Origin: Candidatus Aminicenantes bacterium
Lineage (GTDB): Bacteria > Acidobacteriota > Aminicenantia > Aminicenantales > Saccharicenantaceae
NCBI GenBank assembly: GCA_037447475.1
Contig: JBBIGP010000004.1
Location: forward strand, 7,713-71,712
Direction of reading: 5' to 3'
Length of the DNA stretch: 64,000 nucleotides
Shown: positions 34,907-51,401 of the stretch, piece by piece
Position numbering within the stretch: the stretch's first letter is position 1
Layout of the letters: each line of letters begins with the position of its first letter
Made by a program: the position numbers and the translations under genes
The notes under the pieces: generated by a model
What the model saw: the letters and a program-made list of their open reading frames with translations, nothing else
What the model was told of the DNA's origin: nothing
The model's database searches: none

Positions 34907-35254
34907 ATGACCATAGCGACCCGAGACACGGACGGCGTTGTCATTTTCGACATCACGGGCGAGATCCGGCGCTCCGACAACATGGAAACGACTCTCCATC
35001 ACCTCGTCAAGTCCCACCTCGACCGGGGCAAGCGCAGGATCATGCTCAACTTGGAGAAGGTCGATTTCATCGACAGCTTCGGCGTCGGCGAGATCCTCGC
35101 TAGCTACATCTCCACCCAGAACCTGGGCGGGAGGTTCAAGCTCTTCAGCATCTCGAAAAAGCTCCTCCTCATCTTCCAGATCACGATGCTGACCAAGGTC
35201 CTCGACATCTACGAGGACGAGGGCTGCGCCCTGCGGAGTTTCGAACAGGCGTGA
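34907..35254 (+). CDS. STAS-domain anti-sigma-factor antagonist (SpoIIAA/RsbV-like)
   Basis: 115 aa; ...VVIFDITGEI...LNLEKVDFIDSFGVGEILASY... with phosphorylatable Ser in DSFGVG context. Confidence 0.8.
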   Translation: MTIATRDTDGVVIFDITGEIRRSDNMETTLHHLVKSHLDRGKRRIMLNLEKVDFIDSFGVGEILASYISTQNLGGRFKLFSISKKLLLIFQITMLTKVLDIYEDEGCALRSFEQA

Positions 35255-35281: not shown

Positions 35282-37849
35282 ATGCCTGACGACGGCCGGC
35301 TGAACAGGTTCCTGAACCGTTTCGGCTTCGCCGATGTCCGCGTCCCCGAAACGCGGGCCGTGTCCTATCTCTTCGCCCTCTTCTTCCTGACGACATTCTC
35401 GTTCTACATCATCAAGCCGGTCAAGGAGACCTTCCTCATCGGGGTGACTCCCGCCTGGTGGCCGTACGCGGACCTGGCCACGGCCCTGCTCATCGGCTTC
35501 GTCGTGGCCCTCAACGCCAGGCTCCTCAACCGCCTTCCGCGGCGGGCCTACTTGACGGGGACCGTCCTGTTCTTCGCCGCCTGCTTGTTCGTCTTCTGGT
35601 ACGTTTTCGACGCCGCCCTGCAGCTCCAGATCCGGACGCCCGTGATCCACTCCTCGGCCATTTTCGGCGTCATTCCCTTCCAGGTCGCCGTCCGCAACAT
35701 CTGGCCCCTTCCGGTGTTCGCCTTCAGCTTCTTTTCCGATGTCTTCATCGCCATGTCCGTCACCCAGTTCTGGATCGCGGTCAACGATACCCTCGATCCC
35801 TACCAGGCGAAGAGGACGGTCGGCCTGTTCGTCTCGGGGGGGCTGTTGGGCGGGATCGCCGGCGCCCTCCTGACGTCCCTCCTCGTCCGCGTCGTCGGCC
35901 CCGAGAACCTTCTCCTCGCCTGCCCCGGCATCCTCCTCGTCGTCCTGGCCGCCGTCCGCCTCGTCTACGGCGAGCAGAAAAAGCACAGGGGGGAGGCCGA
36001 GCCCTCGGCATCCCCGCCCAAGGCCCGGGTCGGCTACCTGGAGAGCTTCGGCGCCGTCCGGAGGAACAGGTATCTCCTGCTCCTGGCCGGGCTCCTGGCC
36101 TCGGCCATGGTCGCCGGGTCGCTCATCAACTATCAGTTCAAGATCGTCGTCAAGAGCGTCTTCGCGAGCAGCGTCGACCGGACCTCGTTCCTGGGCTCGT
36201 TCTTCTTCGCCATTCTCGTCCTCTCGACCCTTTTCCATCTGGCCGCCACGCGCCTCGTCCTGAAGAATTTCGGCATCCGGCTGGCCCTCCTCGTGGCCCC
36301 CGTGGTCCTGCTCCTCGGCTCGCTCTCGGTCTTCCTCCTCCCGGCCGGCGCCCTGATGGCCTGGGCCAGTCTCGTCAGGGGCGGCGACAAGATCTTCGAC
36401 AACACGATCGGCCAGTCGGTCCGGGAGCTGCTCTACATCCCCGTCCCGGACGAGATCAAGTACAAGGCCAAGATCTTCATCGACATGTTCGTCAACAAGT
36501 TCGCCGTCGGGCTCGGGGCCGGGCTGTTCCTCCTGCTCTACCACGCGTCGCGCTTCGCCTACAAGGCCGAACCGGCGCAGGTCCGGGAGGTCGGCGTCCT
36601 GGCCGTCGCCTTCATCGCCCTCTGGATGGTTCTCACGGGCGTCGTCTACGGGGAGTACCCGAGCGTCGTGAAGAAGGACCTGGCCCGCAAGTGGAAGGAC
36701 GCCGACAAGGTCGTCGAGGAGAGCGTGGACGTCGATGTGACCCGCCGCGTCTTCGACACCGTCCAGAGCCGGGAGCGGAGCGCGACCCTGTACGTCATGA
36801 ACGTCTTCGACCTCATGCGCCGCGGCCGCCTCAGCCCCGAGCTCAAGGAGCTCTTGGGATCCCAGAGGGACGAGCTCAGGGCCCGGTCCATGGACTGCTT
36901 GTTCGACGTCGGGGGAGAGGTCTTCTTCCAGGGGTTCGAGGAGGCCATCGCCGACGAGGACTTCGGGAAAGAGGTCGAGAAGGTCATCCAGTCGGACGAT
37001 TACAAGGCCCTCATGGAGGGACGCCTCGAGACGGTCGCCGGGTCCGCGTCGGAGATCGAGCGCATGGAAGCGGCCAGGCTCATCGGGATGATGGACCCGA
37101 CGCCCCGGGCCATGAGGGTCCTGAGCGTCCTTCTCCAGGACCCCTCGTCCGAGGTCGCAACGTACGCCCTCGACAGCGCGGCGATCCACCGGAGGAAAGA
37201 GCACATCCCCCTGGCTCTCTCCCAGCTGAGCAATCCCTTGACCTGCCAGGGCGCCCAGGCCGCCTTGGCCGCCTACGGCCCGGCCGCCGAGGAGGCCCTG
37301 AGAGCGGCCCTCCAGGACGAAGACCTGCCCCCCGGCGTCCGCCGGGCCATCCCCGATGTCCTGGGCCGGATCGGGACCCAGCGGGGGGCCGACATCCTTC
37401 TCGCCGAGCTCGGGAGGTGCGGCGAGGACATGGAGCCGGAGATTGTCGGAGCCCTTTACAGGATCCGCTCCGCCCGGCCGGGCGTTCTGTTCAAGGAGAA
37501 GAAGGTCCGTCCCGAGATCCTCCGCCTGGTCAGGAAAGCGGGGGAGATCTTCCTCGAGAGGGTCCTGGACGGACAGGACCCCGGCGCCACGGCGGCCCTC
37601 GACCTTCATGTCAAGCGGATTTTCGACCTGCTGACGCTCGTCCAACCGGCCGAGGACGTCGTCAAGGCCTACCAGAACATCCTTCAAGGGACGAAGCGGT
37701 CTGTCGATTATTCCCTCGAGCTTCTCGACAACCTGCTCGATCGGGAGCTCAAGAGGGCCCTCTTCCCGCTCCTCGAGGACCTCCCGCCCGAGGACAGGAG
37801 CGTCCGGCTGAGAAAGGCCCTTCGGGGCCTCGGCCGGGGCCGGGGTTGA
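35282..37849 (+). CDS. TLC/AAA-family (ATP:ADP antiporter-like) nucleotide transporter homologue fused to C-terminal HEAT/PBS-lyase-like repeats
   Basis: N-terminal ~480 aa polytopic with TLC-like signature FALFFLTTFSFYIIKPVKETFLI; C-terminal ~350 aa of repeated helical pairs (...QGAQAALAAYGPAAEEALRAALQDEDLPPGVRRAIPDVLGRIG...). Confidence 0.6.
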   Translation: MPDDGRLNRFLNRFGFADVRVPETRAVSYLFALFFLTTFSFYIIKPVKETFLIGVTPAWWPYADLATALLIGFVVALNARLLNRLPRRAYLTGTVLFFAACLFVFWYVFDAALQLQIRTPVIHSSAIFGVIPFQVAVRNIWPLPVFAFSFFSDVFIAMSVTQFWIAVNDTLDPYQAKRTVGLFVSGGLLGGIAGALLTSLLVRVVGPENLLLACPGILLVVLAAVRLVYGEQKKHRGEAEPSASPPKARVGYLESFGAVRRNRYLLLLAGLLASAMVAGSLINYQFKIVVKSVFASSVDRTSFLGSFFFAILVLSTLFHLAATRLVLKNFGIRLALLVAPVVLLLGSLSVFLLPAGALMAWASLVRGGDKIFDNTIGQSVRELLYIPVPDEIKYKAKIFIDMFVNKFAVGLGAGLFLLLYHASRFAYKAEPAQVREVGVLAVAFIALWMVLTGVVYGEYPSVVKKDLARKWKDADKVVEESVDVDVTRRVFDTVQSRERSATLYVMNVFDLMRRGRLSPELKELLGSQRDELRARSMDCLFDVGGEVFFQGFEEAIADEDFGKEVEKVIQSDDYKALMEGRLETVAGSASEIERMEAARLIGMMDPTPRAMRVLSVLLQDPSSEVATYALDSAAIHRRKEHIPLALSQLSNPLTCQGAQAALAAYGPAAEEALRAALQDEDLPPGVRRAIPDVLGRIGTQRGADILLAELGRCGEDMEPEIVGALYRIRSARPGVLFKEKKVRPEILRLVRKAGEIFLERVLDGQDPGATAALDLHVKRIFDLLTLVQPAEDVVKAYQNILQGTKRSVDYSLELLDNLLDRELKRALFPLLEDLPPEDRSVRLRKALRGLGRGRG

Positions 37850-37850
37850 A

Positions 37851-40034
37851 ATGGCCGGACGCGTCGTCTACAATGAGGGCGCAGGGGATGACATGCCCGA
37901 CTTCTACGTCTATCCCAAGACGGGCGATCCGTTCACCGTGCCGCTGAAGCCCGGCAAGATCACCATCGGCCGGGCGCCGACGAACGACCTCGTCCTTTCC
38001 GACCAGTTCAGCTCGGGATGTCACGCCTCCGTCTATCCGACGACAAGCGGATTCGTCCTTCTCGATCACGGCAGCAAGAACGGCACGTTCGTCAACGGCA
38101 AGAAGGTCACGGGGGAGATCCTCCTGGCCCGGGGGGACGAGATCCTCATCGGCTCGACGAGGATCTACTTCGACCGGGAGTTCCAGAGCAGCATCGAGAT
38201 GGTCGAGGGGACGACCTTCACCCACAGCTCGAACACCATCATCCAGGTCAAGGACATCCTGAAGAAGGCCCCCACGGCCGGCGACTACAGGACGCCCGGA
38301 GGGGAGCTCGACCTGGGGAAGCTCCAGCAGGAGCAGAAGATGATCGCGGTCATGGGGGAGGTCAGTCAGGCCCTCATCTACCACATGCCCCTCGACAAGC
38401 TGCTCAACCACATCATGGACGTTCTCATCCAATACCTGCCCATGGACCGGGGCGTCCTGATGCTCAAGGACCCGGCGACGGGCGAGCTCGCCCACAAGGT
38501 CGTCCGCGTCCAGAGCGGGTCCCTGAGGACGCAGAACATCGCCATCAGCAAGACCATCGTCCAGACCGCCGTCGAGAAGAACTCGGCCATCCTGCTGTCC
38601 GACATCCGGTCGGACGAGAGGTTCGGCGGCCAGGCCAGCGTCATCCAGGCCCAGATCCATTCGGCCATGTGCATCCCCCTCTGGAACAACCAGAACATTC
38701 TCGGGCTCATCTACGCCGACCGGGCCTCCCTCGTCGAGCAGTTCACGGAAGACGATCTGAAGCTGCTGACCCTGCTCGCCAACCTGGCCGCGGTCAAGAT
38801 CGAGAACGCCCGGCTCTACGAGAATTCCCTCAAAATGGAGCAGATGGAGCGCGAGATGGCGATGGCCGTCCAGATCCAGAAGAACTTCCTGCCCCGGGGG
38901 AACCCGTGGTTCGAACCCTACGACGTCAGCGGCAGCATGCGGGCCTGCCACCACGTCGGCGGGGACTACTACGATTTTCTGCCCGAGGCCGACGACCGGC
39001 TGGGCATCGTCATCGCCGACGTCTCGGGGACGGGGGTCAGCGCGGCCCTCCTCATGGCCAACCTGAGGGGGGCCCTGACCGAGAAGTTCCCGGTCACGCC
39101 GGACCTGGGCGAGCTGGTCGCCAAGCTCAACGACTTCGTCCATTCGAGCTCGGACAGCCATTGCTTCATTTCTTTTTTCCTGGCCGTCCTGGACCGCGCC
39201 CGGGACAGGCTGACCTACGTCAATGCCGGCCACAACCCCCCCCTGCTCGCGGACGATCGCGGCCGGATCAGCCGGCTCGAGAGCACGGGTCTCTGTCTCG
39301 GCATGTTCCCGGCCCGGGCCTACGAGCAGCGGACGATCGACCTCGGGCCGGGGGACGTGCTGTGCCTCTACACGGACGGGATCGTCGAGGGCCGGAACAA
39401 GGGCGGGGAGGAATTCGGGGAGGAGAGGCTCGCGGGGATCCTCCGGTCCGCCGCGGCCATGCCGGCCCGGGGGATCATGGAAAGGATCTACGAGGAGGTC
39501 CTCGCCTTCACGGACTGCTCCGCGGCCGGCGACGACATGACCCTCGTCGTCGTCCGGAAGAACCCGCGGCGGGAGGACGGCGAACGGTCTTCGACGGAAA
39601 GGGACGTGCGGGAGATCCGGGTCCCCGCCGCTCTCGAAGCCGTCGACCGCGTCAGGGAGTTCCTCCGGGCCTACATGGGCGAGCAACGGGTCCCCGACGA
39701 GGAGGCCCTGGCCGTCGAGCTCTCGCTCCACGAGATCTGCGTCAACATCGCGATGTACGCCTACTCCGGGGGTCCGGCGGGAGAGATGGCCGTCCGGATC
39801 TGGAACGATGACGGCATGCTGTTCCTCGAGATCCGCGACCGGGGCGTCCCCTTCGACCCCGCGGGAAAGCCGGACCCCGACCTTCTCGTCAAGGTCCGCC
39901 GCGGGCAGCGGGGCGGATTAGGCGTCTTTTTCTTCAAGACCCTCATGGACGGCTTCACTTACCGCCGGGAGAACGGGGAGAACGTCCTGACCGTCCGCAA
40001 GCGGATCCCGCCCCGGCCCGCTCCGGTTCAGTAG
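37851..40034 (+). CDS. FHA - GAF - PP2C(SpoIIE/RsbU-like phosphatase) - HATPase_c(RsbW-like anti-sigma kinase) four-domain partner-switching protein
   Basis: FHA: ITIGRAPTNDLVLSDQFSSGCHASVY...GSKNGTFVNGKKV; GAF region ~aa 170-330; PP2C motifs GGDYYDF, IADVSGTGVSAALLMANLRGAL, YVNAGHNPPLL, LYTDGIVEG; C-terminal ATPase ...ELSLHEICVNIAMYAY...GMLFLEIRDRGVPFDP. Confidence 0.8.
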   Translation: MAGRVVYNEGAGDDMPDFYVYPKTGDPFTVPLKPGKITIGRAPTNDLVLSDQFSSGCHASVYPTTSGFVLLDHGSKNGTFVNGKKVTGEILLARGDEILIGSTRIYFDREFQSSIEMVEGTTFTHSSNTIIQVKDILKKAPTAGDYRTPGGELDLGKLQQEQKMIAVMGEVSQALIYHMPLDKLLNHIMDVLIQYLPMDRGVLMLKDPATGELAHKVVRVQSGSLRTQNIAISKTIVQTAVEKNSAILLSDIRSDERFGGQASVIQAQIHSAMCIPLWNNQNILGLIYADRASLVEQFTEDDLKLLTLLANLAAVKIENARLYENSLKMEQMEREMAMAVQIQKNFLPRGNPWFEPYDVSGSMRACHHVGGDYYDFLPEADDRLGIVIADVSGTGVSAALLMANLRGALTEKFPVTPDLGELVAKLNDFVHSSSDSHCFISFFLAVLDRARDRLTYVNAGHNPPLLADDRGRISRLESTGLCLGMFPARAYEQRTIDLGPGDVLCLYTDGIVEGRNKGGEEFGEERLAGILRSAAAMPARGIMERIYEEVLAFTDCSAAGDDMTLVVVRKNPRREDGERSSTERDVREIRVPAALEAVDRVREFLRAYMGEQRVPDEEALAVELSLHEICVNIAMYAYSGGPAGEMAVRIWNDDGMLFLEIRDRGVPFDPAGKPDPDLLVKVRRGQRGGLGVFFFKTLMDGFTYRRENGENVLTVRKRIPPRPAPVQ

Positions 40035-40921
40035 AGGACCTTCTCTTCTCCGTTCATCCTGACGAGCCTGTCGATCTCCTTGAGGACGAGGTCCCTGCGG
40101 ACGAGCACGGCCTTGATCTCCTCGTCCGTGAGGTACTCGCCCACGACGCCCTTGACGGCCTCGGCATCGAGCGTCTTGATCTTGTCGACGATGGCCCGGG
40201 GCAGCTCGCTCATGAGCTTGGGGCCTTCCTTGTGCTTTTCCGTGTAGATCAGGCTCTTCGTGAACTTCCCCGAGGCCCGGAAGGACCGGGAGTGGTCGAT
40301 GAGGATCATCCGCCAGTCGGGCTGGGTGATGAGGATCTGGTTCTGGTGGCGGTCCTCGTTGGCGATGAGATTGTCCCAGAACCGCTGCAGGTAGGTCGCC
40401 CGGTTCCAATAATAGACCCTGATGGGCGGGACCTTGAGGTTCTTCTGCTCCTTGTCGCGGAGCGTGATGCAGTCCTCGACCCAGAGCTGGCAGGACCCGC
40501 GCTCCGCGCGGTAACGTCGCTCGACGGTCGGGGGGACCATGTTGAGCCCGAGGTGCTTGTCGAGGAGATAGGCGGCGACCTCGTAGTTCCAACCCTCCCA
40601 ATACCCGCCCATCCGGCCTTGGGCGTTCTTCCACAGGGCCCGGTGGGACACGTCGTCCTTTTTCAGGGTCAGGACCCAGGGGCTGGTCACGGATTCCCTT
40701 CCTGTCATCTGCCGGCTGTCGACGACCTCGGCCGTCCTCAGGAACTCCTCCCACTTCTCCCGCTCGGCCAGGTCTTCGGGCGTGAACTGGGCGGCGCCGA
40801 GTCGCGGGGCCGGCCCTCCGGGGCCGTTGGCCGGGCTCATGGCGTGGCCCAGGAGGACCACGGACAAGACGCCGGCGGCGATGGCGCCGGACACGATGGA
40901 TACGATCGCGGACTTTTTCAT
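40028..40921 (-). CDS. secreted protein with atypical kinase-like domain (HipA/CtkA/PI3-4K-like motifs), paralog 1
   Basis: Signal peptide/anchor MKKSAIVSIVSGAIAAGVLSVVLL; conserved EEFLRTAE, WKN, YEVAAYLLDKHLGLNMVPPT, catalytic-loop-like ANEDRHQNQIL (NxDxHxxN), metal-binding-like ILIDHSRSF; shares ~45% identity by eye with the next gene. Confidence 0.5.
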   Translation of the reverse strand: MKKSAIVSIVSGAIAAGVLSVVLLGHAMSPANGPGGPAPRLGAAQFTPEDLAEREKWEEFLRTAEVVDSRQMTGRESVTSPWVLTLKKDDVSHRALWKNAQGRMGGYWEGWNYEVAAYLLDKHLGLNMVPPTVERRYRAERGSCQLWVEDCITLRDKEQKNLKVPPIRVYYWNRATYLQRFWDNLIANEDRHQNQILITQPDWRMILIDHSRSFRASGKFTKSLIYTEKHKEGPKLMSELPRAIVDKIKTLDAEAVKGVVGEYLTDEEIKAVLVRRDLVLKEIDRLVRMNGEEKVLY

Positions 40922-40970
40922 TCTTCCCTCCCTGATCTATCCGGTCGATGGCCCAGCCATCTCCTCTCCC

Positions 40971-41807
40971 TCAGTAGAGGACGGCGGCTTCGCCCTGTTC
41001 CCGGACCATCTGGCGGATCTCCTTGAGCAGGAGGTCGCGGCGGGCCAGTACGGCCCGGATCTCCTCGTCCGTGAGGTACTCTCCCACAGCGGCCCGGATG
41101 GTCTCGAACGATAACTCCCGGATCCGGTCCACGAACGAGCGTGGCAGGCGCCGGAAGAGGAACGGCGTCCCCTGCATGGACGTCTGCAGGCCCCGCTGTC
41201 CGAACATCAGCCTTTTCGTGTGCTCCTTCGTCGCGCGGAACGACCGCGAGTGGTCGATGAGGATCATCCGCCAGTCCTCGGTGTAGAGGATGTTCTGCTG
41301 GTTCCGGTCCTCGTTGGCGATGAGACTGTCCCAGGCGCGGGTCAGCCACTTCATCTTTTCCGTGTGTTCCGTCACGGAGTCGGGAATGCGGATGTTGTTG
41401 TCGACGATCTTTTCCAGGCTGTGCTTGTTCTCGGCCCAGAGGACGAGGGCGCCGCTCTGTCCCTGGAACTCCCGCTCGACGGCCGGTGGGATCATGTTCA
41501 AGCCGATGAGCTTGTCGAGGCGGTAGGCGGCGATCTCGAATCGCCAGCCCTCGTAGAAGCCCAGCTGCATGCCGCTCGGGTTCTTCCAGCAGGCCGCCGC
41601 CTCGCGGTCTCCCTGTTTGAGAGTGAGCTTGAAGGGCTTGGTCACCCCTTCGCCGATCTCCTTGAAGCCGGCGATCTCGGCCGTCCTCAGGAACTCCTCG
41701 AACGCTTCTCTCGCGGCGATCTCGTCCGGGGTGAATTGCCCGAACAGGGCGGCCGGAGCCGCTATGAGCAGGAGAAGGCAAACGGCGGCCCGAAACGCAC
41801 ATATCAT
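40971..41807 (-). CDS. secreted protein with atypical kinase-like domain, paralog 2
   Basis: Trimmed to MICAFRAAVCLLLLIAAPAALFGQ signal peptide; same motifs: EEFLRTAE, WKN, FEIAAYRLDKLIGLNMIPPA, ANEDRNQQNIL, ILIDHSRSF, C-term ...GEYLTDEEIRAVLARRDLLLKEI...VLY. Confidence 0.5.
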   Translation of the reverse strand: MICAFRAAVCLLLLIAAPAALFGQFTPDEIAAREAFEEFLRTAEIAGFKEIGEGVTKPFKLTLKQGDREAAACWKNPSGMQLGFYEGWRFEIAAYRLDKLIGLNMIPPAVEREFQGQSGALVLWAENKHSLEKIVDNNIRIPDSVTEHTEKMKWLTRAWDSLIANEDRNQQNILYTEDWRMILIDHSRSFRATKEHTKRLMFGQRGLQTSMQGTPFLFRRLPRSFVDRIRELSFETIRAAVGEYLTDEEIRAVLARRDLLLKEIRQMVREQGEAAVLY

Positions 41808-41915
41808 CGAATCTTCCTCCGATGGCACCCTGATGCTCCTATCATAAGGAGGGTCAAGGGGGAAATCAAGCCCAGCCCGAGCCCCGTTTCCGCTTCGTGT
41901 GGCCGTCGAGGGGGA

Positions 41916-43406
41916 TCAGGCTTTGGCAAGGGCATCCTGGGCGGTCTTCCGCCTTCGGTAGGCGGGAATGATCTTGAGACAGATGCCGATCAGGACGGCC
42001 ACGGCGAAGACGTTGAGGAGAGCGTAGTTTTCGATGTGAAGTCCGAGAAGGTGGACGCCGATGAGGACGGCCAGCGCTGAAAGCGTGTCTCCCCCCCTGA
42101 CAAAGAAGGTGTCGATAGCCGCCTTGGCTTTATACTTCTCCTCCCGCTTGGTGACCAGGAACAGCGCGGCCTTGGTCGTATTCTGAAGGGAATAGTCGGT
42201 GCCGTTCTCGAAGGCCTTGACCCAGCGGACGAGCACGAGAACGGCTCCGAAGGAAATCAGCGTGTAGCCGCCCAGGGCGATGAGAGGAAGGAAGAGCAAG
42301 GCCCCTCCCACGCCGATCCACTTGAAGATGCGCGAGACCAGGAAGAGCTGGATGATGAGGGCGATCAGATTGGTCAGGAACTGGTAGTTCATGAATGCGC
42401 TGTGAATGGCCTTGCTCTCCGTTCCGGCGGGCAAGGCCGGGGACGCCGCCGGGCGCTTCCGATCGGCTCCATCGTCGGGAAGCGGGACGAGCCGGCCCCG
42501 CGGGCCTCCCGCGGCTCCATCGGCTATCGACTCCCTGACCGTGACGGCGGTGATGATATATTCCCCGGTCGCATTGATGAAATTATAGAGGCCGATCATG
42601 GCCGCGATGAGAAGAAGGTAGCGGCTCTTGAAGATCAGCCGGAACCCTCCTCCCGCTCTTAGCGGCTGTTCACTGGCGACGCTTTCCTCCTCGGCCTTGG
42701 CCAGGCCCTTTTCGCGGGCCTCGCGGGTGTCCCGGACGGCCCGGTTGTGGATATGCCAGGCCAAGGCGATGCAGAGCAGCAGGATGAGGCCCGCGATGAG
42801 CATGAGCTCGTATTCCCAGTTCTCCCCCAGGATATCCCTCAACCGCTTCATGATCGGCAAGGTCGCGACGAGCCATCCGAGCGTGGCTCCCAGGGCGACG
42901 AGCGGAAACGTGCGCTTTCCGACCTCGTCCGAATAGAGGTCGTTCGCGAAGCCCCAGAACTGGGCGATCACGAAATAATTGAATATGCCGATCCAGATGA
43001 AGAACATGATCCCCATGGGCTTGACGGCCATCCCGCTCAAGTTGAGGAAATAGAAGACGACGAGGTTGGAGATGAAGAATGATGTTGTCCAAGTGATAAG
43101 GATATGCCGAGGCACCCTGGAAGCGAGGCGACTGAATGCCTTGATGACGAAGATGAAGAGAACGGCTTGGGCCCCGCTCAGGTAGCTCTTGACTTGAGGG
43201 GAACCCTGGTCAACAAGGAGAAGCGACTCGCGCAGCGGCTTGAGGATGTAGTAGGCCAGAAGCAAAAGAAAGATGTTGAGGGCGAGCAGGAGGGCCTTCA
43301 GGGCTTCCCCCTTGCGGACGTCGGCGAACAGCCTGAGGAAGCCGTAGCCGATGTTCGAAGTAGCGCCGCCCGACGGCGGGATCCCCCCGCGGATTCTATC
43401 CCCCAT
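41916..43406 (-). CDS. TLC/AAA-family ATP:ADP antiporter-like nucleotide transporter (Npt/Tlc homologue)
   Basis: 496 aa, ~12 TM; TLC signature LKALLLALNIFLLLLAYYILKPLRESLLLV; internal Gly/Pro/Ala-rich ~40-aa loop insertion (…ADGAAGGPRGRLVPLPDDGADRKRPAASPALPAGTE…). Confidence 0.65.
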   Translation of the reverse strand: MGDRIRGGIPPSGGATSNIGYGFLRLFADVRKGEALKALLLALNIFLLLLAYYILKPLRESLLLVDQGSPQVKSYLSGAQAVLFIFVIKAFSRLASRVPRHILITWTTSFFISNLVVFYFLNLSGMAVKPMGIMFFIWIGIFNYFVIAQFWGFANDLYSDEVGKRTFPLVALGATLGWLVATLPIMKRLRDILGENWEYELMLIAGLILLLCIALAWHIHNRAVRDTREAREKGLAKAEEESVASEQPLRAGGGFRLIFKSRYLLLIAAMIGLYNFINATGEYIITAVTVRESIADGAAGGPRGRLVPLPDDGADRKRPAASPALPAGTESKAIHSAFMNYQFLTNLIALIIQLFLVSRIFKWIGVGGALLFLPLIALGGYTLISFGAVLVLVRWVKAFENGTDYSLQNTTKAALFLVTKREEKYKAKAAIDTFFVRGGDTLSALAVLIGVHLLGLHIENYALLNVFAVAVLIGICLKIIPAYRRRKTAQDALAKA

Positions 43407-43427
43407 GTCGACCTCCCTCCGGGACGC

Positions 43428-45311
43428 TCAGATCAGGACATGGCCCTCCCCGCGGGTCTCGATGAGCCTTTTGATGATCCGGATGATGAGGTCACGGCGG
43501 GAATGGAGGGCTTCGATCTCTTCTTTGTCGAGATGGGGCGACAGAAGGAGGAAGACCGCCTTCCTGTCCCACCCCAGGAGCTTGCCGAAGAGGTCTTTCG
43601 AGCACTTGCGGATCTCGCATCCGGGCGGAAGGCTCTTCCGGGGCGCGAAGGCTTCCGAGAAATCGACGCGGTAGATCCGCTGGTCGTCGCGGCTGACGAG
43701 CACGTCCCGGTCGTTGTCGCACTCTTCGTGGACGAGCATCTCGAAGAGCCGCAGGTCTTCCCGGTCCCGCTCGAAGGCCGCGGGCCGGGCCGGGGCGAGC
43801 TTCTGCTCCTTCCAGTCGAATTCCGAGATGGCGTTCTCGACGAAGACCTGCAGGGAGCCGGGGATCCCGTCGATCTCCCGCTCGATGACAGGCGGGACGA
43901 ACGCCAGCTTGAGGTACTTGGCGAGGTCGTAAGCGGCCAGCTCGTAGCGGTAGCTGTCGGGGAGCGGGTGAGGGCGGCGCCGGTCGATGTACTTGAACAT
44001 GGCCCTGCGCGTGACGCCGTCCTTCTCGAGGGTCACCCGCCAAGGCTCCGTCCGCCCGGCGGCGGCCGTCTTGCGGGCCATGGCCTTGGCCGTCCTGAGG
44101 AACTCCTCGACGGCTTTGGCCGAAGCGAGCGGTTCCGGGCGGGTGACGACCGGAGAGCTGCGGGCGGCGGCCTCTTCCGTCTCGCCCCAGAGCTCGAACC
44201 GTCCGTCCTCGTAGATGAGGGCCGCGGGCAGGCCGCCGTAAAACTCGGAGATCCCGGTGTCGATGACGAAGACCTTGCCGCCGAAGCGGCTGACGGTCTC
44301 GAGGGTCGCGATGGGGCTCGACCCGGCGTTGTTGACAGGCAGATAGCTGTGGCCGACGACGATGGCCCGGGCCCCGAGGTTGTCCAGGATACGGTCGACC
44401 TCGGCCTGAGCGGTGCCTTCGATATGGGTCGTCAGGCCCCGGAACCAGACCGGGCCGTCCGGCGCGTAGACGAGCTTGGGCTTGAAGGGCCTAAAATAGC
44501 GATGAGGGGACTTGATCCTCTCCCGGAACTCCTCGAGCTCCTTTCTCATGAGGTCGTTCGTCTCGCGCAACGGCCGTTTCGAGTAGTGCTCGTTGACGCC
44601 CCCGTGGAGGTAGACGACGTCGTTGATCTTGATGATGGTGTTCTTCGTCAGCAGCCAGCTTCCGTACAGGTCGTTGAAGGCGTTGACATAGGCCAGGCGG
44701 GCCTCCCGGTCGTGGCGGATGACACGCTGCCAGTAGGCCCGCAGAGCTTCGTCCGTCCCGAGATCCAGGCCCTCGGCCTCGGCCTGGCGGCGCCGGTCGC
44801 GGGGGAGCCTGGCGATGTAGGCCGCTTCCAGGGACCTGCGGACGCCGTCCGGGAGGAAGGAGACGAACTGCTCGGGCGTGACGTACTGAGGATAGTCCAG
44901 GGCGATGCCGGTGATGTTCATCTCCTCGTGGTTGCCGATGAGGACGTGGACCAAGCCGCCGGCCGCCTCGGCTTCCTTTTCGAGGCGCATGAGAAGGTCC
45001 ATGATCTTCCTGGCGTCGGGGCCGCGGTCCATGATGTCGCCGAGCTGGACGAGGTGGGCCGTCCCGGCGGTCCATCGGAGGTCCGCGTCGATGACGCCGA
45101 CCTCGGGGTTCGAGAGGATGAAGACGAACCGGTCGTAGTCGCCGTGCAGGTCGCCGACGGCGACGACGCGGCCGACGCCGGACCAGGCATAGGGGATCTC
45201 GGAGGCGGGAGAGAGCGGGACATGGAGCAGGATGAGCAGGAGAAGAATAAACAGACCTTTGAGGGGCCGACATGGGGCCTGTCGCGACCATCCCCTGCTG
45301 CGTTCGGGCAT
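43428..45311 (-). CDS. secreted calcineurin-like metallophosphoesterase fused to divergent atypical-kinase-like domain (paralog 3)
   Basis: Signal peptide ...LFILLLLILLHVPLSPA; MPE motifs VVAVGDLHGDYDRF, LVQLGDIMDRGPDARKIM, VLIGNHEEMN, ...IVVGHS...; C-terminal 250 aa aligns with paralogs 1/2 (EEFLRTAK, YELAAYDLAKYLKLAFVPP, ...GHVLI) but catalytic-loop region altered (HEECDNDRDVLV; YRVDFSEAF). Confidence 0.6.
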   Translation of the reverse strand: MPERSRGWSRQAPCRPLKGLFILLLLILLHVPLSPASEIPYAWSGVGRVVAVGDLHGDYDRFVFILSNPEVGVIDADLRWTAGTAHLVQLGDIMDRGPDARKIMDLLMRLEKEAEAAGGLVHVLIGNHEEMNITGIALDYPQYVTPEQFVSFLPDGVRRSLEAAYIARLPRDRRRQAEAEGLDLGTDEALRAYWQRVIRHDREARLAYVNAFNDLYGSWLLTKNTIIKINDVVYLHGGVNEHYSKRPLRETNDLMRKELEEFRERIKSPHRYFRPFKPKLVYAPDGPVWFRGLTTHIEGTAQAEVDRILDNLGARAIVVGHSYLPVNNAGSSPIATLETVSRFGGKVFVIDTGISEFYGGLPAALIYEDGRFELWGETEEAAARSSPVVTRPEPLASAKAVEEFLRTAKAMARKTAAAGRTEPWRVTLEKDGVTRRAMFKYIDRRRPHPLPDSYRYELAAYDLAKYLKLAFVPPVIEREIDGIPGSLQVFVENAISEFDWKEQKLAPARPAAFERDREDLRLFEMLVHEECDNDRDVLVSRDDQRIYRVDFSEAFAPRKSLPPGCEIRKCSKDLFGKLLGWDRKAVFLLLSPHLDKEEIEALHSRRDLIIRIIKRLIETRGEGHVLI

Positions 45312-45477: not shown

Positions 45478-46830
45478 GTGACGAAAGGACGGTGGACCGT
45501 GCGTTTCGGATCGTTCGTTGGTGTCATAGGGCTTGTGGGAATGTTTGTCGTTCTTGCCGGGGTTTCCGGCTGCAGGGGAGGCGGGCGGCCGGTCCCCTCC
45601 GAGGATGTCGCTGTGACGGTCAAGCCGGGCGTCGAGGTCTTCCTCGAGAGATATGTCGGGCTCGTGGAGGGCAAGCGCGTCGGCCTGATCACCAACCCGA
45701 CGGGAGTGGATGGGCGCCTGCGGTCGACGGTGGACCTGTTCGCCGGGAGCCCCGATATCGACCTGGTCGCGCTCTATGGCCCCGAACACGGCGTCAGGGG
45801 GAACGCGCAAGCCGGCGAATACGTGCCGTTCTACATCGACGACAAGTACGGTTTGCCCGTTTTCAGCCTCTACGGACAGTCGTTCAAGCCCCCGCCGGGC
45901 ATGCTCAAGGACATCGACGAGCACATGCGGTCGTTCGACACGGACATCGCCGGGAAGGTCCCCGAGAAAGCCATGGTCGAGAGCGTCGACGTCCTCGTCT
46001 TCGACGTCCAGGACGTGGGGACGAGGGTCTACACCTATATCGCCACCATGGCTTACGCGATGCAGGCGGCGGCCGAGAGCGGCATCGAGGTCATCGTCCT
46101 GGACCGCCCGAACCCCGTCAACGGCGTGGACATGGAGGGGCCGATCCTGGAGTATCCCGCATTCAGCTCGTTCGTCGGGCTCTATCCCGTCCCTGAGCGC
46201 TTCGGCATGACGATGGGCGAGCTGGCCCTGCTCTTCAACGACAGGTTCCTGGAGAAGAAGGCCCGTCTGACGGTCGTCGCCATGGAGGGCTGGAAGAGGC
46301 CGATGTGGTTCGACGATACGGGACTGCCCTGGATCATCCCTTCGCCCAACATGCCGACCCTCGACACGGCCACGGTCTATCCGGGCCAGGTCTATATCGA
46401 GGGGACGAACATGTCGGAAGGCCGGGGTACGACCCGGCCGTTCGAGCTGTTCGGAGCGCCTTGGATCGACGGCCACGAGCTGGCGAAAAGGCTCAACGGG
46501 CTCGGCTTGCCGGGCGTCGTCTTCCGGGAGACCTGGTTCACGCCGTGGTTCTCCAAGTTCCAAGGGCAGCTCTGCGGAGGCTGCCAGGTCCATGTCACGG
46601 ACAGGGAGGCATACCGGTCGTTCGGGACCGCGCTGCACGTCATCAAGACGGTCCGGGACATGTATCCGGACAAGTTCGCCTTCCATGCGGACTACTTCGA
46701 CAAGGTCATGGGGACGGACAAGGTCCGCCGGGCTCTCGAAGCGGGGGAGACCGTCCCAGCGATCCTCGAGAGACTGGAGCCCGGGCTGGCCGCCTTCGCC
46801 GCGCTCCGCCGCCCGTATCTGCTCTATTAG
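45478..46830 (+). CDS. DUF1343 family protein (exo-beta-N-acetylmuramidase NamZ-like), lipoprotein
   Basis: 450 aa; lipobox VLAGVSGC; conserved ...VGLITNPTGVD...VALYGPEHGVRG...VLVFDVQDVGTRVYTYI...LDRPNPVNG... Confidence 0.75.
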   Translation: MTKGRWTVRFGSFVGVIGLVGMFVVLAGVSGCRGGGRPVPSEDVAVTVKPGVEVFLERYVGLVEGKRVGLITNPTGVDGRLRSTVDLFAGSPDIDLVALYGPEHGVRGNAQAGEYVPFYIDDKYGLPVFSLYGQSFKPPPGMLKDIDEHMRSFDTDIAGKVPEKAMVESVDVLVFDVQDVGTRVYTYIATMAYAMQAAAESGIEVIVLDRPNPVNGVDMEGPILEYPAFSSFVGLYPVPERFGMTMGELALLFNDRFLEKKARLTVVAMEGWKRPMWFDDTGLPWIIPSPNMPTLDTATVYPGQVYIEGTNMSEGRGTTRPFELFGAPWIDGHELAKRLNGLGLPGVVFRETWFTPWFSKFQGQLCGGCQVHVTDREAYRSFGTALHVIKTVRDMYPDKFAFHADYFDKVMGTDKVRRALEAGETVPAILERLEPGLAAFAALRRPYLLY

Positions 46831-46833
46831 CAA

Positions 46834-46921
46834 GAAGGGGTCAAATCTCCACTCATTAAATTTTCAGCTGCCATGTCGTCGGGAAATCGAAAAATTTAAT
46901 GAGTGGAGATTTGACCCCCTC
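46834..46921. repeat. AT-rich ~88 bp palindromic element, copy B (arms gaaggggtcaaatctccactcattaaatttt / revcomp, 25-bp spacer)
   Basis: Arms 46834-46864 and 46890-46921 are reverse complements with a single mismatch; the same element is at 11730-11819. Both copies carry compensatory substitutions (cttatta vs ctcatta) that keep each copy self-complementary. Confidence 0.8.
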
Positions 46922-47002
46922 TTGTTGCATCCTTGCCGCTGTTCCCATAAAATGAATGCTCTTGCCTTACGGAGCCACAATCATAAAAAGGAGAGCGACG
47001 AG

Positions 47003-48574
47003 ATGGCGAACAAGACCCTTCACTACGCCCTGGTCAACCCGCTGTCCAAGTTCCTCGATAAGCCGGCCGCCGACTTCACCCGGGCCGACCTGCTCAGGGT
47101 CATCGAGGACCGGCAGATCGAGCGCATCACCTTCCACTACACGGCGGTCGACGGCAAGCTCAAGGAGCTCAAGATCCCGGTCGCCGGCCGGTCCCAGATC
47201 GAGGCCATCCTGGCCGAAGGCGAGCGGGCCGACGGCTCCTCGCTCTTCAAGGGCATGGTCGATATGGCTCTGTCGGACGTCTATATCGTGCCCCAGTACC
47301 GGTCGGCCTTTTTCAATCCGTTCGACGAGGGCAGCCTGGACTTCGTCTGCCGCTATCTGACCAAGGAGGGCGACCTCGCCCCGTTCACCCCGGACAACAT
47401 CCTGGCCCGGGCCGCTGCGATGTTCCGCCGGACGACCGGCCTCGAGTTCAACGCCCTGGGCGAGCTCGAGTTCTTCCTGCTCCTCGAGCCGTCGGACCGG
47501 AGGTACCCGGCCGAGCCTCAGCGCGGCTACCACGGCTCGTCTCCCTTCGTCCGCGGCGGCCCCATCCTCGACGAGATGCTGCGCCACATCGCCCGCGTCA
47601 CCGGGGCCGTCAAGTACGCCCACAGCGAGGTCGGCCTTGTGGACAGCCTGAAGAGCGACCTCGACGAGATCCGCGGCCGCCGGGCCGAGCAGATGGAGGT
47701 CGAGTACCTGCCCAAGCCCGTCGAGGACATGGCCGACGACCTGGTCATCGGCCGCTGGATCATCCGCAACACGGCCTACCGCCACAACGCGATCGCTACC
47801 TTCGCCCCCAAGCTCGAGGAAGGGGTGGCCGGCAGCGGCCTCCATTTCCATCTCGAGTTCACCAAGGACGGCCGCAACGTCATGGCCGGCCCCGACGGCA
47901 AGCTCACCGAGGCCGCCCGCAGGCTCGTCGGAGGCCTTTGCGAATACGCCGACTCGCTGACGGCTTTCGGCAACACGGTCTCTTCGGCCTACCTCCGCTT
48001 GGTCCCCCACCAGGAGGCCCCGACCCGCATCTGCTGGAGCGACCTCAACCGCAGCGCCCTCATCCGGGTGCCCCTCGGCTGGCACGGCCTCGGAAACCTG
48101 GCCCGGCGCGTCAATCCCCAAGAGACGGGGGAATTCGTCGACCCGCGCGGCGGCCGCCAGACCGTCGAGATCCGCAGCCCCGACGGCAGCGCCAACATCC
48201 ATCTGACCCTGGCCGGCATCTGCATGGCCGCCAACTGGGCTTTCGCCTCCGACCAGGACCTCCACAAGGACCATGGCCCTCTCGACCTCGCCGAGCGCCT
48301 CTACGTCAAGGGCAATATCTTCGCCGACAAGGAGCTCCTCAAGCGCCTGCCGACCCTGCCGTCGAGCTGTGTGGAATCGAGCCGCCTCCTCCTCAAGAAG
48401 CGGGCGCTTTACGAGCGCGACGGGATCTTCCCCCCGAGCGTCATCGACTGCGTCGCCCGCATGCTCCAGGCCGAGGACGACGAGGCCATGAACAAGAAGC
48501 TCGCCGGCCTGCCGGCCCACGAGCGGCTTCACGAGATCCGCAAGATCATGCACAAGGACCTCCACAAGCATTGA
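47003..48574 (+). CDS. glutamine synthetase catalytic-domain family protein (GS-like, divergent/type-III-like)
   Basis: Trimmed to MANKTLHYAL with AAAGGAG RBS; GS-like motifs GSGLHFHLEF and ...ICWSDLNRSALIRVP...; ~520 aa with extra N- and C-terminal regions. Confidence 0.7.
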   Translation: MANKTLHYALVNPLSKFLDKPAADFTRADLLRVIEDRQIERITFHYTAVDGKLKELKIPVAGRSQIEAILAEGERADGSSLFKGMVDMALSDVYIVPQYRSAFFNPFDEGSLDFVCRYLTKEGDLAPFTPDNILARAAAMFRRTTGLEFNALGELEFFLLLEPSDRRYPAEPQRGYHGSSPFVRGGPILDEMLRHIARVTGAVKYAHSEVGLVDSLKSDLDEIRGRRAEQMEVEYLPKPVEDMADDLVIGRWIIRNTAYRHNAIATFAPKLEEGVAGSGLHFHLEFTKDGRNVMAGPDGKLTEAARRLVGGLCEYADSLTAFGNTVSSAYLRLVPHQEAPTRICWSDLNRSALIRVPLGWHGLGNLARRVNPQETGEFVDPRGGRQTVEIRSPDGSANIHLTLAGICMAANWAFASDQDLHKDHGPLDLAERLYVKGNIFADKELLKRLPTLPSSCVESSRLLLKKRALYERDGIFPPSVIDCVARMLQAEDDEAMNKKLAGLPAHERLHEIRKIMHKDLHKH

Positions 48575-49647: not shown

Positions 49648-51207
49648 TTAGTCTGCGCCGCCGGGCTTCAGTCCCCCGCGCTGGGCCTTGAACTCGGGGA
49701 TGAGGCGCTTCCACAGGGAATTGAACCGGTCTTGAAGTTCGGCGTAAGTCGCCGCGTTGGCCGGGTCGGTCACGGCCGCCAACTTGCCCAGCGAAACGCG
49801 TTCGTCGGTGATCTCGGCGATCGTCACTTTCTCGCCCTTCTCCCGGAGGAAGCACCAGATCGATTGGAGGGCCGCCCCGAAAGCGGCCGCCTCCTGTTCC
49901 TGGAGCGTGACGACCGGCGCGCCCAGGACGTCGGCCGCGATCTGCAGCCAGAGCCGGCTCTTGGCGCCGCCTCCCGTGGCCCGGATCTCGCTCGGCTCGA
50001 GCCCGAGCTTTCGCATCCTGGCCATCCCGTACCCGAGGTTGAGGATGGCCCCTTCCATGACGGCCCGGGCGATATGGGCCGCGTCGAAGCTCCGGCGGTC
50101 GAGTCCGAAAAGAACGGCGCACGCGAAGGGCAGCGCCGGGACCCGCTCGCCGTCGACGAACGGCAGGAAGAGAAGCCCGCCGGCCCCGGCCGGCGCCGAA
50201 CGGGCCAGGGCCTCGAGGCGGACGTTGTCGATCCTGAAGAGCGGCTTGACGAGCTCGGTCGTGTTGGTGACGTTCATCGTGCAGAGGAGCGGGAGCCAGC
50301 CCCCCGTGCTGTCGCAGAAGGATGCGATCTCGCCCCGGGGATCGACGAACGGCTTTGCGGAATACGAATAGACCGTCCCCGACGTCCCCAGGCTCAGCGT
50401 GCAGGCGCCGGGCTTGACATTGCCGCTGCCGACGGCGCCCATCATGTTGTCGCCGCCGCCGCCCGAGACGAGGACCTTGCCGAACCCGAAGCGGGCCGCA
50501 ACGCTCTTCTTTATCAGGCCCGCCGGCTCGGCCGGGTGGCTGAGGCGCGGGAGCTTGACGGCCAGGCCGGGATCGACGGTCCGGACGGCCTGCGGGCTCC
50601 ATCGTCGCCGCCGGACATCCATGAGACCGGTCCCCGACGCGTCGCCGTATTCCATATGGATGCGGCCGGTCAGGTGGTAGTTCAGATAATTGTGGGGCAG
50701 GAGAACGGCCGCGAGCTTCGCGAAGTTTTCAGGCTCGCGGCGCTTGAGCCAGAGGATCTTTGAGATCGTGTAGCCGACCGCCGGGGCGATGCCCAGCTTC
50801 TTGATCCAGCCTTTCGCCCCGCCGAGCCGGGCCAGCAGCTCCTCGGTCTCCTCGATGGTCGAGGTGTCGTTCCAGAGCTTGGCCGGCCGGATGGGCCGGC
50901 CCTTGCCGTCGAGCGGAACGAACCCATGCTGTTGCCCGGAAACGCCCAGCGAGACGACGCTCCGGGGCTCGACCCGGGACTCCCGGAGGGCCGCGGCCAG
51001 CGCCTTGTCCATGGCCCGGACCCAGGTCGCCGGGTCCTGCTCGCTGGCCCCCGGGCCGAGCCCGGCGATCATTTCGTGGGGCGCGTATCCGCGGCCGAGG
51101 ACGCGGCCCGAATCGAAGTCGACGACGAGGGCTTTCGTGCCTTGGGTGCCGGAATCGATGCCGACGGCGCATCTCGCGCTTTTCGCCCGCGACGGTATAT
51201 TTTTCAT
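49648..51207 (-). CDS. FGGY-family carbohydrate kinase (xylulokinase-like)
   Basis: Trimmed to MKNIPSRAKSARCAVGIDSGTQGTKALVVD (N-terminal ATPase phosphate-1 motif); ...GVSGQQHG..., ...LSLGTSGTVY..., ...GGGAKSRLWLQIAADVLGAPV. Confidence 0.85.
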   Translation of the reverse strand: MKNIPSRAKSARCAVGIDSGTQGTKALVVDFDSGRVLGRGYAPHEMIAGLGPGASEQDPATWVRAMDKALAAALRESRVEPRSVVSLGVSGQQHGFVPLDGKGRPIRPAKLWNDTSTIEETEELLARLGGAKGWIKKLGIAPAVGYTISKILWLKRREPENFAKLAAVLLPHNYLNYHLTGRIHMEYGDASGTGLMDVRRRRWSPQAVRTVDPGLAVKLPRLSHPAEPAGLIKKSVAARFGFGKVLVSGGGGDNMMGAVGSGNVKPGACTLSLGTSGTVYSYSAKPFVDPRGEIASFCDSTGGWLPLLCTMNVTNTTELVKPLFRIDNVRLEALARSAPAGAGGLLFLPFVDGERVPALPFACAVLFGLDRRSFDAAHIARAVMEGAILNLGYGMARMRKLGLEPSEIRATGGGAKSRLWLQIAADVLGAPVVTLQEQEAAAFGAALQSIWCFLREKGEKVTIAEITDERVSLGKLAAVTDPANAATYAELQDRFNSLWKRLIPEFKAQRGGLKPGGAD

Positions 51208-51401
51208 GCTCCCGCCTTTCGTCCGAGGAACACATCGTGATGAAGAATCGGCTTCATTGTAAGGAAGCCCGCGCGGAGGTGTCAACCGCGCTCGATATCA
51301 ATGGGCGGCAATCTCATAGCTTTGTCAGCGGCCGGACCTTGACATGCCATGAAGGGAGCCATAGAATGGCTCAACCCGAGCGTCGTGATAGCGAGAGACC
51401 G

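Follow-up and report, generated by a model that had tools for sequence, protein, structure and literature searches.

What three kinase-like paralogues with predicted export signals would do in the periplasm, which is conventionally regarded as ATP-free, is the question raised by a gene cluster of a Candidatus Aminicenantes bacterium. The cluster lies at 40028-45311 of the stretch of 64,000 nucleotides analyzed here (the window; contig JBBIGP010000004.1 of assembly GCA_037447475.1, positions 7,713 to 71,712) and is a single minus-strand operon of four co-directional open reading frames (ORFs) separated by gaps of 21, 87–108, and 49 bp. These encode a 627-aa protein that joins a phosphatase to a kinase-like domain, K3 (43428-45311), a 496-aa homologue of the NTT/TLC-family nucleotide transporters (41916..43406), and two kinase-like proteins, K2 (40971..41807; 278 aa from its ATG or 285 aa from an alternative GTG start at 41828) and K1 (40028..40921; 297 aa). 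We suggest, with a probability of roughly 0.5, that the products of the locus make up a phospho-transfer module outside the cytoplasm, with the NTT homologue as its source of ATP. An earlier note on this DNA had described three paralogues with kinase-like motifs, and it included neither the phosphatase half of the 627-aa protein nor the NTT/TLC identity of the 496-aa ORF; the triplication is part of a conserved operon that includes a nucleotide-transporter homologue.

The full-length paralogy that the note had claimed was borne out by pairwise BLASTP, in which K1 and K2 share 49% identity across 259 aa (E 2e-87), and residues 392-626 of the fusion protein share 33% identity with K1 (E 5e-26) and 25% with K2 (E 9e-18). 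The three-way alignment is collinear from EEFLRTA through the C-terminal VLY/VLI, and every motif that had been quoted was read again at its exact codons in K1, K2, and the third copy. All of these lie on the minus strand. In K1 they are the WK motif (40628-40633, with the codon of Lys-98 at 40628-40630), the NEDRHQNQ loop (40337-40360), and DHSRSF (40280-40297), which correspond in K2 to the NEDRNQQN loop (41292-41315) and DHSRSF (41238-41255). The K3 domain (fusion residues 392-627, 43431..44138) carries Lys-440 in MFKY (43989-44000), the altered loop HEECDNDRDVLV (43695-43730), and RVDFSEAF (43647-43670).

A kinase identity had also been proposed for the three, from motifs like those of HipA, CtkA, and the PI3/4-kinases; it holds at the superfamily level, with Fam20 and the type II phosphatidylinositol 4-kinases (PI4KII) closer than HipA. 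None of the window proteins reaches the threshold of a curated kinase family in Pfam or NCBIfam. Searched against Pfam, K1, K2, and the kinase-like part of the fusion gave only sub-threshold matches, to PI3_PI4_kinase, HipA_2, and FAM198. For PI3_PI4_kinase (PF00454, cut-off 27.1 bits) K1 scores 17.0 bits (E 0.006) and K2 16.1 bits (E 0.011), with no match on the fusion protein; for HipA_2 (PF20613) the matches are weak (E 0.01-0.12) and under the cut-off; and for the HipA_C profile (PF07804), a check that the note had recommended, no match was found. Neither K1 nor K2 nor the fusion matched Fam20C (PF06702) at E≤1. The best curated-family match is to the NCBIfam model TIGR03843 (the SCO1664 family, E 9e-12), at 44.8 bits for K1, 36.6 for K2, and 21 for the fusion, far under the equivalog cut-off of 172.4. 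Among 26 distant long relatives, PF06702 is reached by only two (29.4 bits against a cut-off of 26.8) and PF00454 is matched by seven, the best at E 8.5e-13.

A single-sequence phmmer search of the Protein Data Bank (PDB) placed Fam20B at E 0.14, and a profile built from close homologues reached only E 0.0015, both too weak to decide. The deciding profile was built from 74 diverse family members and run against PDB sequences, where it matched Fam20A at E 4.9e-13, Fam20B at 2e-10, Fam20C at 2e-9 to 5e-9, C. elegans Fam20 at 4.7e-6, PI4KII beta at 1.5e-5, and PI4KII alpha at 2.8e-5, with no HipA among the matches. The note had counted the lack of any significant kinase profile match toward a refutation of the kinase proposal, and the matches to Fam20A and PI4KII dispose of that objection. 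The alignment spans the N-terminal helix (EEFLRTA), the FK motif, E(I/V)AAY.LD..LG....PPT, LI.N.DR, ID..R.F, and the C-terminal helices around LT..E..AL..RR. Comparison of folds likewise put Fam20 and PI4KII ahead of HipA, with values of 19.4 for Fam20C, 19.1 for Fam20B, 18.6 for PI4KIIa, and 18.4 for C. elegans Fam20, followed by CtkA (15.7), actin-fragmin kinase (12.7), HipA (12.4–12.6), and CotH (11.5); the top ranks in Foldseek were taken by Fam20C and PI4KIIb. By both homology and fold the solved structures closest to the family are those of Fam20, and K1 and K2 are on this basis classed as kinases that belong, within the protein-kinase-like superfamily, to the branch of Fam20 and type II PI4K. 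Since no window protein reaches the threshold of a curated kinase family, theirs is an unnamed family of that superfamily.

The family is large. K1 has 3376 homologues in a set of 5.8 billion proteins, all unnamed, without Pfam domains, and mostly from metagenome-assembled genomes of Candidatus Aminicenantes, which also dominate a profile search of the same set. When 1.84 billion cluster representatives (50% identity) were searched exhaustively with a profile, 4601 clusters matched at E≤1e-3 and, at the stricter limit of E≤1e-30, 701. A model naming the family was found in neither Pfam nor NCBIfam, and the database names met were “hypothetical protein” or “metallophosphoesterase”. Cluster look-ups, in which taxonomy was otherwise sparse, gave the names Myxococcota, Acidobacteriota, and Bacteriovoracaceae. 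Two other architectures were seen among the members: a 671-aa protein (P0124) with two tandem kinase-like regions, one at about residues 200–300 matching Pfam kinase families and one at 386-623 matching the family profile, and very large proteins of 1611-1612 aa from Bacteriovoracaceae (P0255/P0367) with the family domain in the middle.

Residue conservation was counted in species-level orthologues from 80 GTDB genomes, using K1 numbering. Lys-98, Glu-114, Asn-188, Asp-190, Arg-191, Asp-209, His-210, and Arg-212 are invariant in the 67 K1 orthologues, and the same catalytic residues are present in 56–57 of the 57 K2 orthologues. The NEDRH/NEDRN and IDHSRSF motifs of K1 and K2 align with the LIGNxDRHHYE loop of Fam20 and with HLDNxRGF, which holds its second, metal-site aspartate. 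K1 and K2 thus appear to have intact and strictly conserved active sites, with the roles of the residues assigned from alignment and conservation. K3 departs from this pattern in a regular manner: Lys-98 is kept in 40 of 42 orthologues and Asp-209 in all 42, whereas the loop aspartate, Asp-190, is replaced by Cys (29 sequences), Ser (6), or Arg (4). His-210 has become Phe in 42/42 and Arg-212 Glu in 38/42, and residue 195 is Asp in 41/42. K3 therefore has the second aspartate of Fam20 without the one in the catalytic loop. The note had regarded the third copy as apparently degenerate, as in a pseudokinase or a kinase of altered specificity; the pseudokinase reading is supported, and it is sharpened by the conservation of the altered site across the 42 orthologues. 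A decaying pseudogene was accordingly rejected, also on account of the signal peptide of its own that K3 bears where it is a separate gene, and K3 is, as judged from these conserved substitutions, a distinct and selected pseudokinase-type paralogue. Kinase domains fused to phosphatases outside Aminicenantes mostly retain N.DRN.GN and IDH(S/T)R(S/A)F.

The cysteine that stands in K3 for the loop aspartate (within fusion residues 528-539) is accompanied in the fusion alignment by an invariant Cys-565 and a nearly invariant Cys-570 (residues 565-572, 43596-43619). In a protein predicted to be exported, these cysteines may be paired in a disulfide or provide a site that responds to redox state.

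The N-terminal half of the fusion protein is a Shelph (Shewanella-like) phosphatase domain of the PPP family (residues 48-377, 44181..45170 (-)). It matches Metallophos (PF00149, E 1e-10), its closest solved structure is the cold-active protein-tyrosine phosphatase of Shewanella (2z72/1v73, E 1.3e-35), and the family motifs are present as GDLHGD (45138-45155), GDIMDRG (45021-45041), and GNHE (44925-44936), corresponding to GDxHG, GDxxDRG, and GNHE. A Metallophos domain occurs in 17 of 26 long family representatives, and the fusion has 1089 homologues, whose annotations go no further than metallophosphoesterase or hypothetical. About half of the Aminicenantes species have separate, overlapping genes for the phosphatase (∼350–400 aa) and K3 (∼270 aa), and in the lineage of the window the two form one protein of 627 aa; this is a fusion or fission event inside one class. 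The separate arrangement was seen in L015, L024-L028, L031, L034-L037, and other loci, for example at L025:1166-3050.

Each of the three window proteins has a basic stretch at its N terminus and, after it, a hydrophobic segment, in agreement with the signal peptides noticed previously; in K1 the signal or anchor segment covers residues 1-27, and the predicted signal peptide of the fusion, read from the sequence, is MPERSRGWSRQAPCRPLKGLFILLLLILLHVPLSPAS (45201..45311 (-)). Orthologues were scored for an 11-residue hydrophobic window before the domain with a Kyte-Doolittle mean of at least 2.2, a heuristic that is not equivalent to SignalP. Such a segment is found in 91% of K1, 96% of K2, 82% of K3, and 98% of phosphatase/fusion orthologues, compared with 0% of a cytoplasmic SpoIIE control, and outside Aminicenantes in 80% of the kinases and 86% of the phosphatases or fusions; the result is thus consistent over hundreds of sequences. 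Many K1 orthologues have a lipobox (e.g. ..LLLAC..). The soluble parts of the system accordingly all carry predicted export signals, either signal peptides or lipoprotein signals, and because basic residues precede the hydrophobic segment the catalytic domains are predicted to lie outside the membrane.

The 496-aa product of the gene between the fusion and K2, which lacks a HEAT tail, matches TLC (PF03219) at E 2e-16, with 60.3 bits where 21 would suffice, and the solved NTT1 carriers (PDB ID 9j3n) at E 1e-5. A second copy, encoded at 35282-37849 (+) and provided with a HEAT tail, also lies above the PF03219 cut-off (47.2 bits) and matches NTT1 at E 1e-8. The two copies are only distantly related to one another, and for TIGR00769 they score 48.8 and 35.2 bits, where the superfamily cut-off is 387.2. 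The second copy is the middle gene of an operon that converges on K1, with stop codons overlapping at 40028-40034, in which it is preceded by a STAS gene (34907-35254 (+)) and followed by a gene whose Pfam domains are FHA, GAF, SpoIIE, and HATPase_c_2 (37851-40034 (+)). SpoIIE and HATPase_c_2 are fused in the window and are separate genes in most relatives. This operon is of the partner-switching type, with a nucleotide-transporter homologue in its middle, and throughout Aminicenantes it remains a neighbor of the kinase operon, also at loci where it has moved across to the other side (L028, L038, L070). It is probably a cytoplasmic regulatory arm, and its persistent position suggests that it may belong to the kinase system.

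Linkage within Aminicenantes was counted in 53 species loci with at least 6 kb upstream of K1, scoring an NTT when it lay within 6.5 kb upstream or 5 kb downstream. Phosphatase and K3 were present in 46 of these, K2 in 39, the NTT in 38, and the convergent HATPase_c_2 gene in 40. Because protein identities among these loci drop to ∼40–45%, the linkage exceeds recent synteny. A search with the K1-family profile kept 80 related loci, all of them Aminicenantes K1 orthologues and hence uninformative on other phyla. Outside the class, the gene for an 803-aa fusion (L087/L088) has an NTT-HEAT gene directly after it, a 685-aa fusion from Acidobacteriota (L090) is preceded by an NTT-HEAT and a cNMP-binding gene with overlapping stops and starts, and a 701-aa fusion (L091) is preceded by an overlapping NTT-HEAT-cNBD gene. 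A metagenome scan seeded with the kinase domains of non-Aminicenantes fusions returned 80 loci, 79 at 35–47% identity to the query and one (L092) identical to it, in which a transporter was scored from TLC, HEAT-tail, or cNBD pieces within 600 bp. Such a gene accompanied 15 of the 17 fusion loci with at least 300 bp of flank on each side and 10 of the 12 with at least 1 kb. Three layouts recur: NTT-HEAT comes after the fusion in the first and, as NTT-HEAT(-cNBD), before it in the second, whereas in the third a kinase gene converges on NTT-HEAT and a phosphatase(-kinase) gene comes next. Because NTT genes are few per genome, the association of transporter and fusion is beyond chance, as judged from this rarity and not from a computed background rate. 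All-against-all clustering of neighboring ORFs, which was polluted by off-frame ORFs in GC-rich DNA, brought out only cNBD, HEAT tails, and Peptidase_M14 as a lineage marker.

Two variants of the operon were seen in other Aminicenantes. In L025 and about 25 other loci, and not in the window, the NTT and K2 genes have between them an oppositely oriented gene for a lipoprotein of ∼277 aa; the copy at L025:4592-5425 (-) matches SdiA-regulated (PF06977, E 1e-14) and Phytase-like (PF13449), a β-propeller family with esterase/phytase-like annotation. Two tandem K2 copies, giving four kinase-fold genes per operon, occur in Saccharicenans-like loci (L031, L032, L035, L037, L040).

In the mechanism that we favor, K1 and K2 would be active either in the periplasm or at the cell surface, and the co-encoded NTT would fuel them by exchanging cytoplasmic ATP for periplasmic ADP. 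The NTT is proposed as the supplier because the kinases need a nucleotide triphosphate, the compartment is regarded as free of ATP, and the carrier is tied to these genes across phyla. Nucleotide carriers likewise supply the lumen of the eukaryotic secretory pathway where Fam20 kinases work. The Shelph phosphatase would reverse the modification, and K3 would target the phosphatase or allosterically regulate K1 and K2, by analogy with Fam20A, a pseudokinase that activates Fam20C (PMC7948968). The HEAT and cNBD tails, together with the STAS, NTT-HEAT, and SpoIIE-RsbW-like genes, could gate the supply from the cytoplasm. Among protein, glycan, and lipid, a protein is our first guess for the substrate of K1 and K2, because the phosphatase is of the PPP type.

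Several observations weigh against this mechanism. The window NTTs are highly divergent from the characterized ones (E 1e-5 to 1e-8), too far for a substrate to be inferred. PamNTT1, the one NTT studied in this respect, intrinsically favors the import of ATP and suppresses the reverse exchange (PMC1951785), a preference opposite to the direction that the model requires. A Myxococcota fusion (L089/L152) has no NTT within 8 kb, none was found within 8–10 kb of the stand-alone kinases of L084, the P0207 contig, L114, L118, and L138, and of the 15 stand-alone kinase loci in the metagenome scan only 5 had a transporter nearby. Ap4A hydrolases, too, are enzymes of the PPP fold, and the predicted export comes from a hydrophobicity heuristic and visual inspection. 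For the ATP-export step taken by itself we would put the odds somewhat short of even. The broader proposition, that bacteria carry out ATP-dependent phosphorylation outside the cytoplasmic membrane in which Fam20-like kinases write, a pseudokinase-guided Shelph phosphatase erases, and an NTT-family carrier exports ATP, is put forward tentatively, as less likely than not yet with a substantial chance, and the same estimate applies to the idea that it would be a categorically new bacterial process.

The direction of transport is central to a different reading of the locus, in which the NTT imports and the exported phosphatase and kinase-like domains either bind nucleotides or dinucleoside polyphosphates outside the cell and process them ahead of uptake or signal nucleotide availability via the HEAT/cNBD tail. 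Such scavenging or sensing would be in keeping with the fact that the characterized NTTs are all importers, with the disfavored ATP export of PamNTT1, and with an NTT linkage that is tightest for the phosphatase-containing fusion and not for stand-alone kinases. We nevertheless consider it unlikely, as it leaves unexplained the complete phosphotransfer site in 100% of K1 and K2 orthologues and the site retained in most non-Aminicenantes fusions, and even then an extracytoplasmic kinase could not do without a donor of phosphate. A similarly low probability is given to the same exported module acting on envelope glycans or lipids, for example on sugars in surface polysaccharides, peptidoglycan, or lipopolysaccharide or on outer-leaflet lipids. 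Substrates of this kind are used by Fam20B, a xylose kinase, and PI4KII, a lipid kinase, which are the two closest relatives in structure, and the activity of Fam20B is considered ancestral in Fam20 (PMC7948968). Many K1 orthologues are predicted lipoproteins and so would be membrane-tethered, a phytase-like lipoprotein lies inside the operon in many Aminicenantes, and glycosyltransferases or a GH18 enzyme stand beside two non-Aminicenantes loci. What speaks for protein instead is a partner phosphatase from the PPP family of protein phosphatases, together with the finding that no conserved glycan-biosynthesis gene accompanies the module across the lineages examined.

Other kinase-fold activities have been documented, to judge from references 119 and 120 as cited in PMC7948968, and the fold might here serve AMPylation as in SelO, glutamylation as in SidJ, or nucleotide binding only, in regulatory or adaptor subunits of the phosphatase or transporter. 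The conservation of K3 without its catalytic aspartate and the failure of any window protein to reach a curated kinase-family threshold would fit; the alignment of the Lys, the Glu, the NxDR(H/N)xxN loop, and the second Asp of K1 and K2 with the phosphotransfer residues of Fam20 makes it improbable. A further reading, a triplicated HipA-type cytoplasmic toxin kinase of a toxin-antitoxin system, is the least credible of all and was rejected. It could draw on the weak HipA_2 matches and on the description of Fam20 as distantly related to bacterial HipA (PMC6829671), but HipA_C is not matched, HipA_2 stays under its cut-off, no HipB-like antitoxin gene is adjacent, and the predicted signal peptides are conserved. 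HipA and CtkA are also more distant from the family than Fam20 and PI4KII, and in contrast to the setting of injected effectors the window genes form a conserved chromosomal operon of free-living sediment bacteria.

The preferred reading, an exported and ATP-supplied phospho-transfer module, finds its closest parallel in Fam20. Common to both are the catalytic loop LI.N.DRH and the second Asp in D-N/H-x-R-x-F (in K1 and K2), an N-terminal helix with a C-terminal helical bundle, a signal sequence (here predicted) with action outside the cytosol in the case of Fam20, and the presence of an active kinase alongside a conserved pseudokinase paralogue. The differences are equally clear: the minimal domain is ∼250 aa here compared with ∼350–400 aa in Fam20, no window protein matches PF06702, K3 has lost the catalytic-loop Asp whereas the Fam20 pseudokinase has lost its metal-binding Glu, K1 and K2 are encoded together with a PPP phosphatase and an NTT homologue, and the window family is bacterial whereas Fam20 has been presented as an animal-only family (PMC7948968).

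The likeness to PI4KII and SCO1664 lies in the best curated match, to TIGR03843, and in the family members that reach PF00454; the window proteins themselves remain below both cut-offs and are predicted to be exported, whereas PI4KII and SCO1664-family proteins are known as cytoplasmic proteins. Unlike the Shelph phosphatases such as 1v73, the one described here is fused, or in sister lineages adjacent, to a kinase-fold domain. The transporters resemble the NTT and NTT-HEAT(-cNBD) proteins in that both window copies are above the PF03219 cut-off, the second copy has a HEAT tail, and, as in Major et al. 2017, cNBD genes or domains follow in other lineages; they differ from the characterized importers in being very divergent and in the reversed, ATP-out direction proposed for them.

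Many free-living bacteria carry NTT-HEAT(-cNBD) proteins, to which no function has been assigned (Major et al. 2017, PMC5381601). Neither that paper nor the rest of the literature found describes a genomic partnership of NTT with exported kinase and phosphatase genes, and no description was found of bacterial Fam20-like exported kinases, periplasmic ATP-dependent kinases, or NTT-HEAT function. The parts of the module thus come from known superfamilies, and the family, its export, and the three-part module appear to be undescribed. The family is a much closer bacterial relative of Fam20 than HipA, the only one cited, and it repeats both the predicted signal peptide and the pairing of active kinase and pseudokinase. 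The NTTs of free-living bacteria, especially NTT-HEAT-cNBD, are an acknowledged puzzle, and their adjacency to exported kinase and phosphatase genes leads to the hypothesis of a periplasmic ATP supply. If this were true, the rule that there is no ATP-driven chemistry in the periplasm would be overturned, the widespread orphan NTT-HEAT(-cNBD) transporters of free-living bacteria would have a function, and the secretory-pathway kinases of animals would gain a sister, or an ancestor, among prokaryotes. If ATP is not exported, kinases with intact sites in a compartment thought to lack their co-substrate would still need explaining.

Two assemblies call for comment. A contig labeled “Candidatus Hydrothermarchaeota archaeon” (L029, JBHIEG010000043.1) carries K2-K1-HATPase_c_2 at 55–67% identity to the window and is almost certainly a mis-binned Aminicenantes contig and not an archaeal occurrence. 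An identical K1 occurs in L001 and L002 (GCA_041304185.1 and GCA_041304085.1) in differing upstream contexts, one with the full phosphatase-NTT-K2-K1 operon and the other with only a K2-like gene preceded by unrelated genes; the difference reflects either a rearrangement or an assembly join.

A promoter and terminator scan of the locus was uninformative. A sigma-70-like match (TTGATT-17-TATGAT, 41841-41869 (-)) lies just 5′ of K2 in the gap after the NTT gene, and from this consensus-level match K2-K1 may have a promoter of its own. The operon is flanked on one side by a gene for a TonB-dependent-receptor-like outer-membrane protein with a carboxypeptidase-regulatory domain (31868-34576 (+)), and on the other by genes for a NamZ exo-N-acetylmuramidase lipoprotein (45478-46830 (+)), divergent from the fusion gene, a glutamine synthetase (46592-48574 (+)), and an FGGY sugar kinase (49648-51285 (-)). 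The synteny of NamZ, GlnA, URO-D, and FGGY is retained in close relatives only, and a functional tie to the divergent NamZ gene was rejected for that reason.

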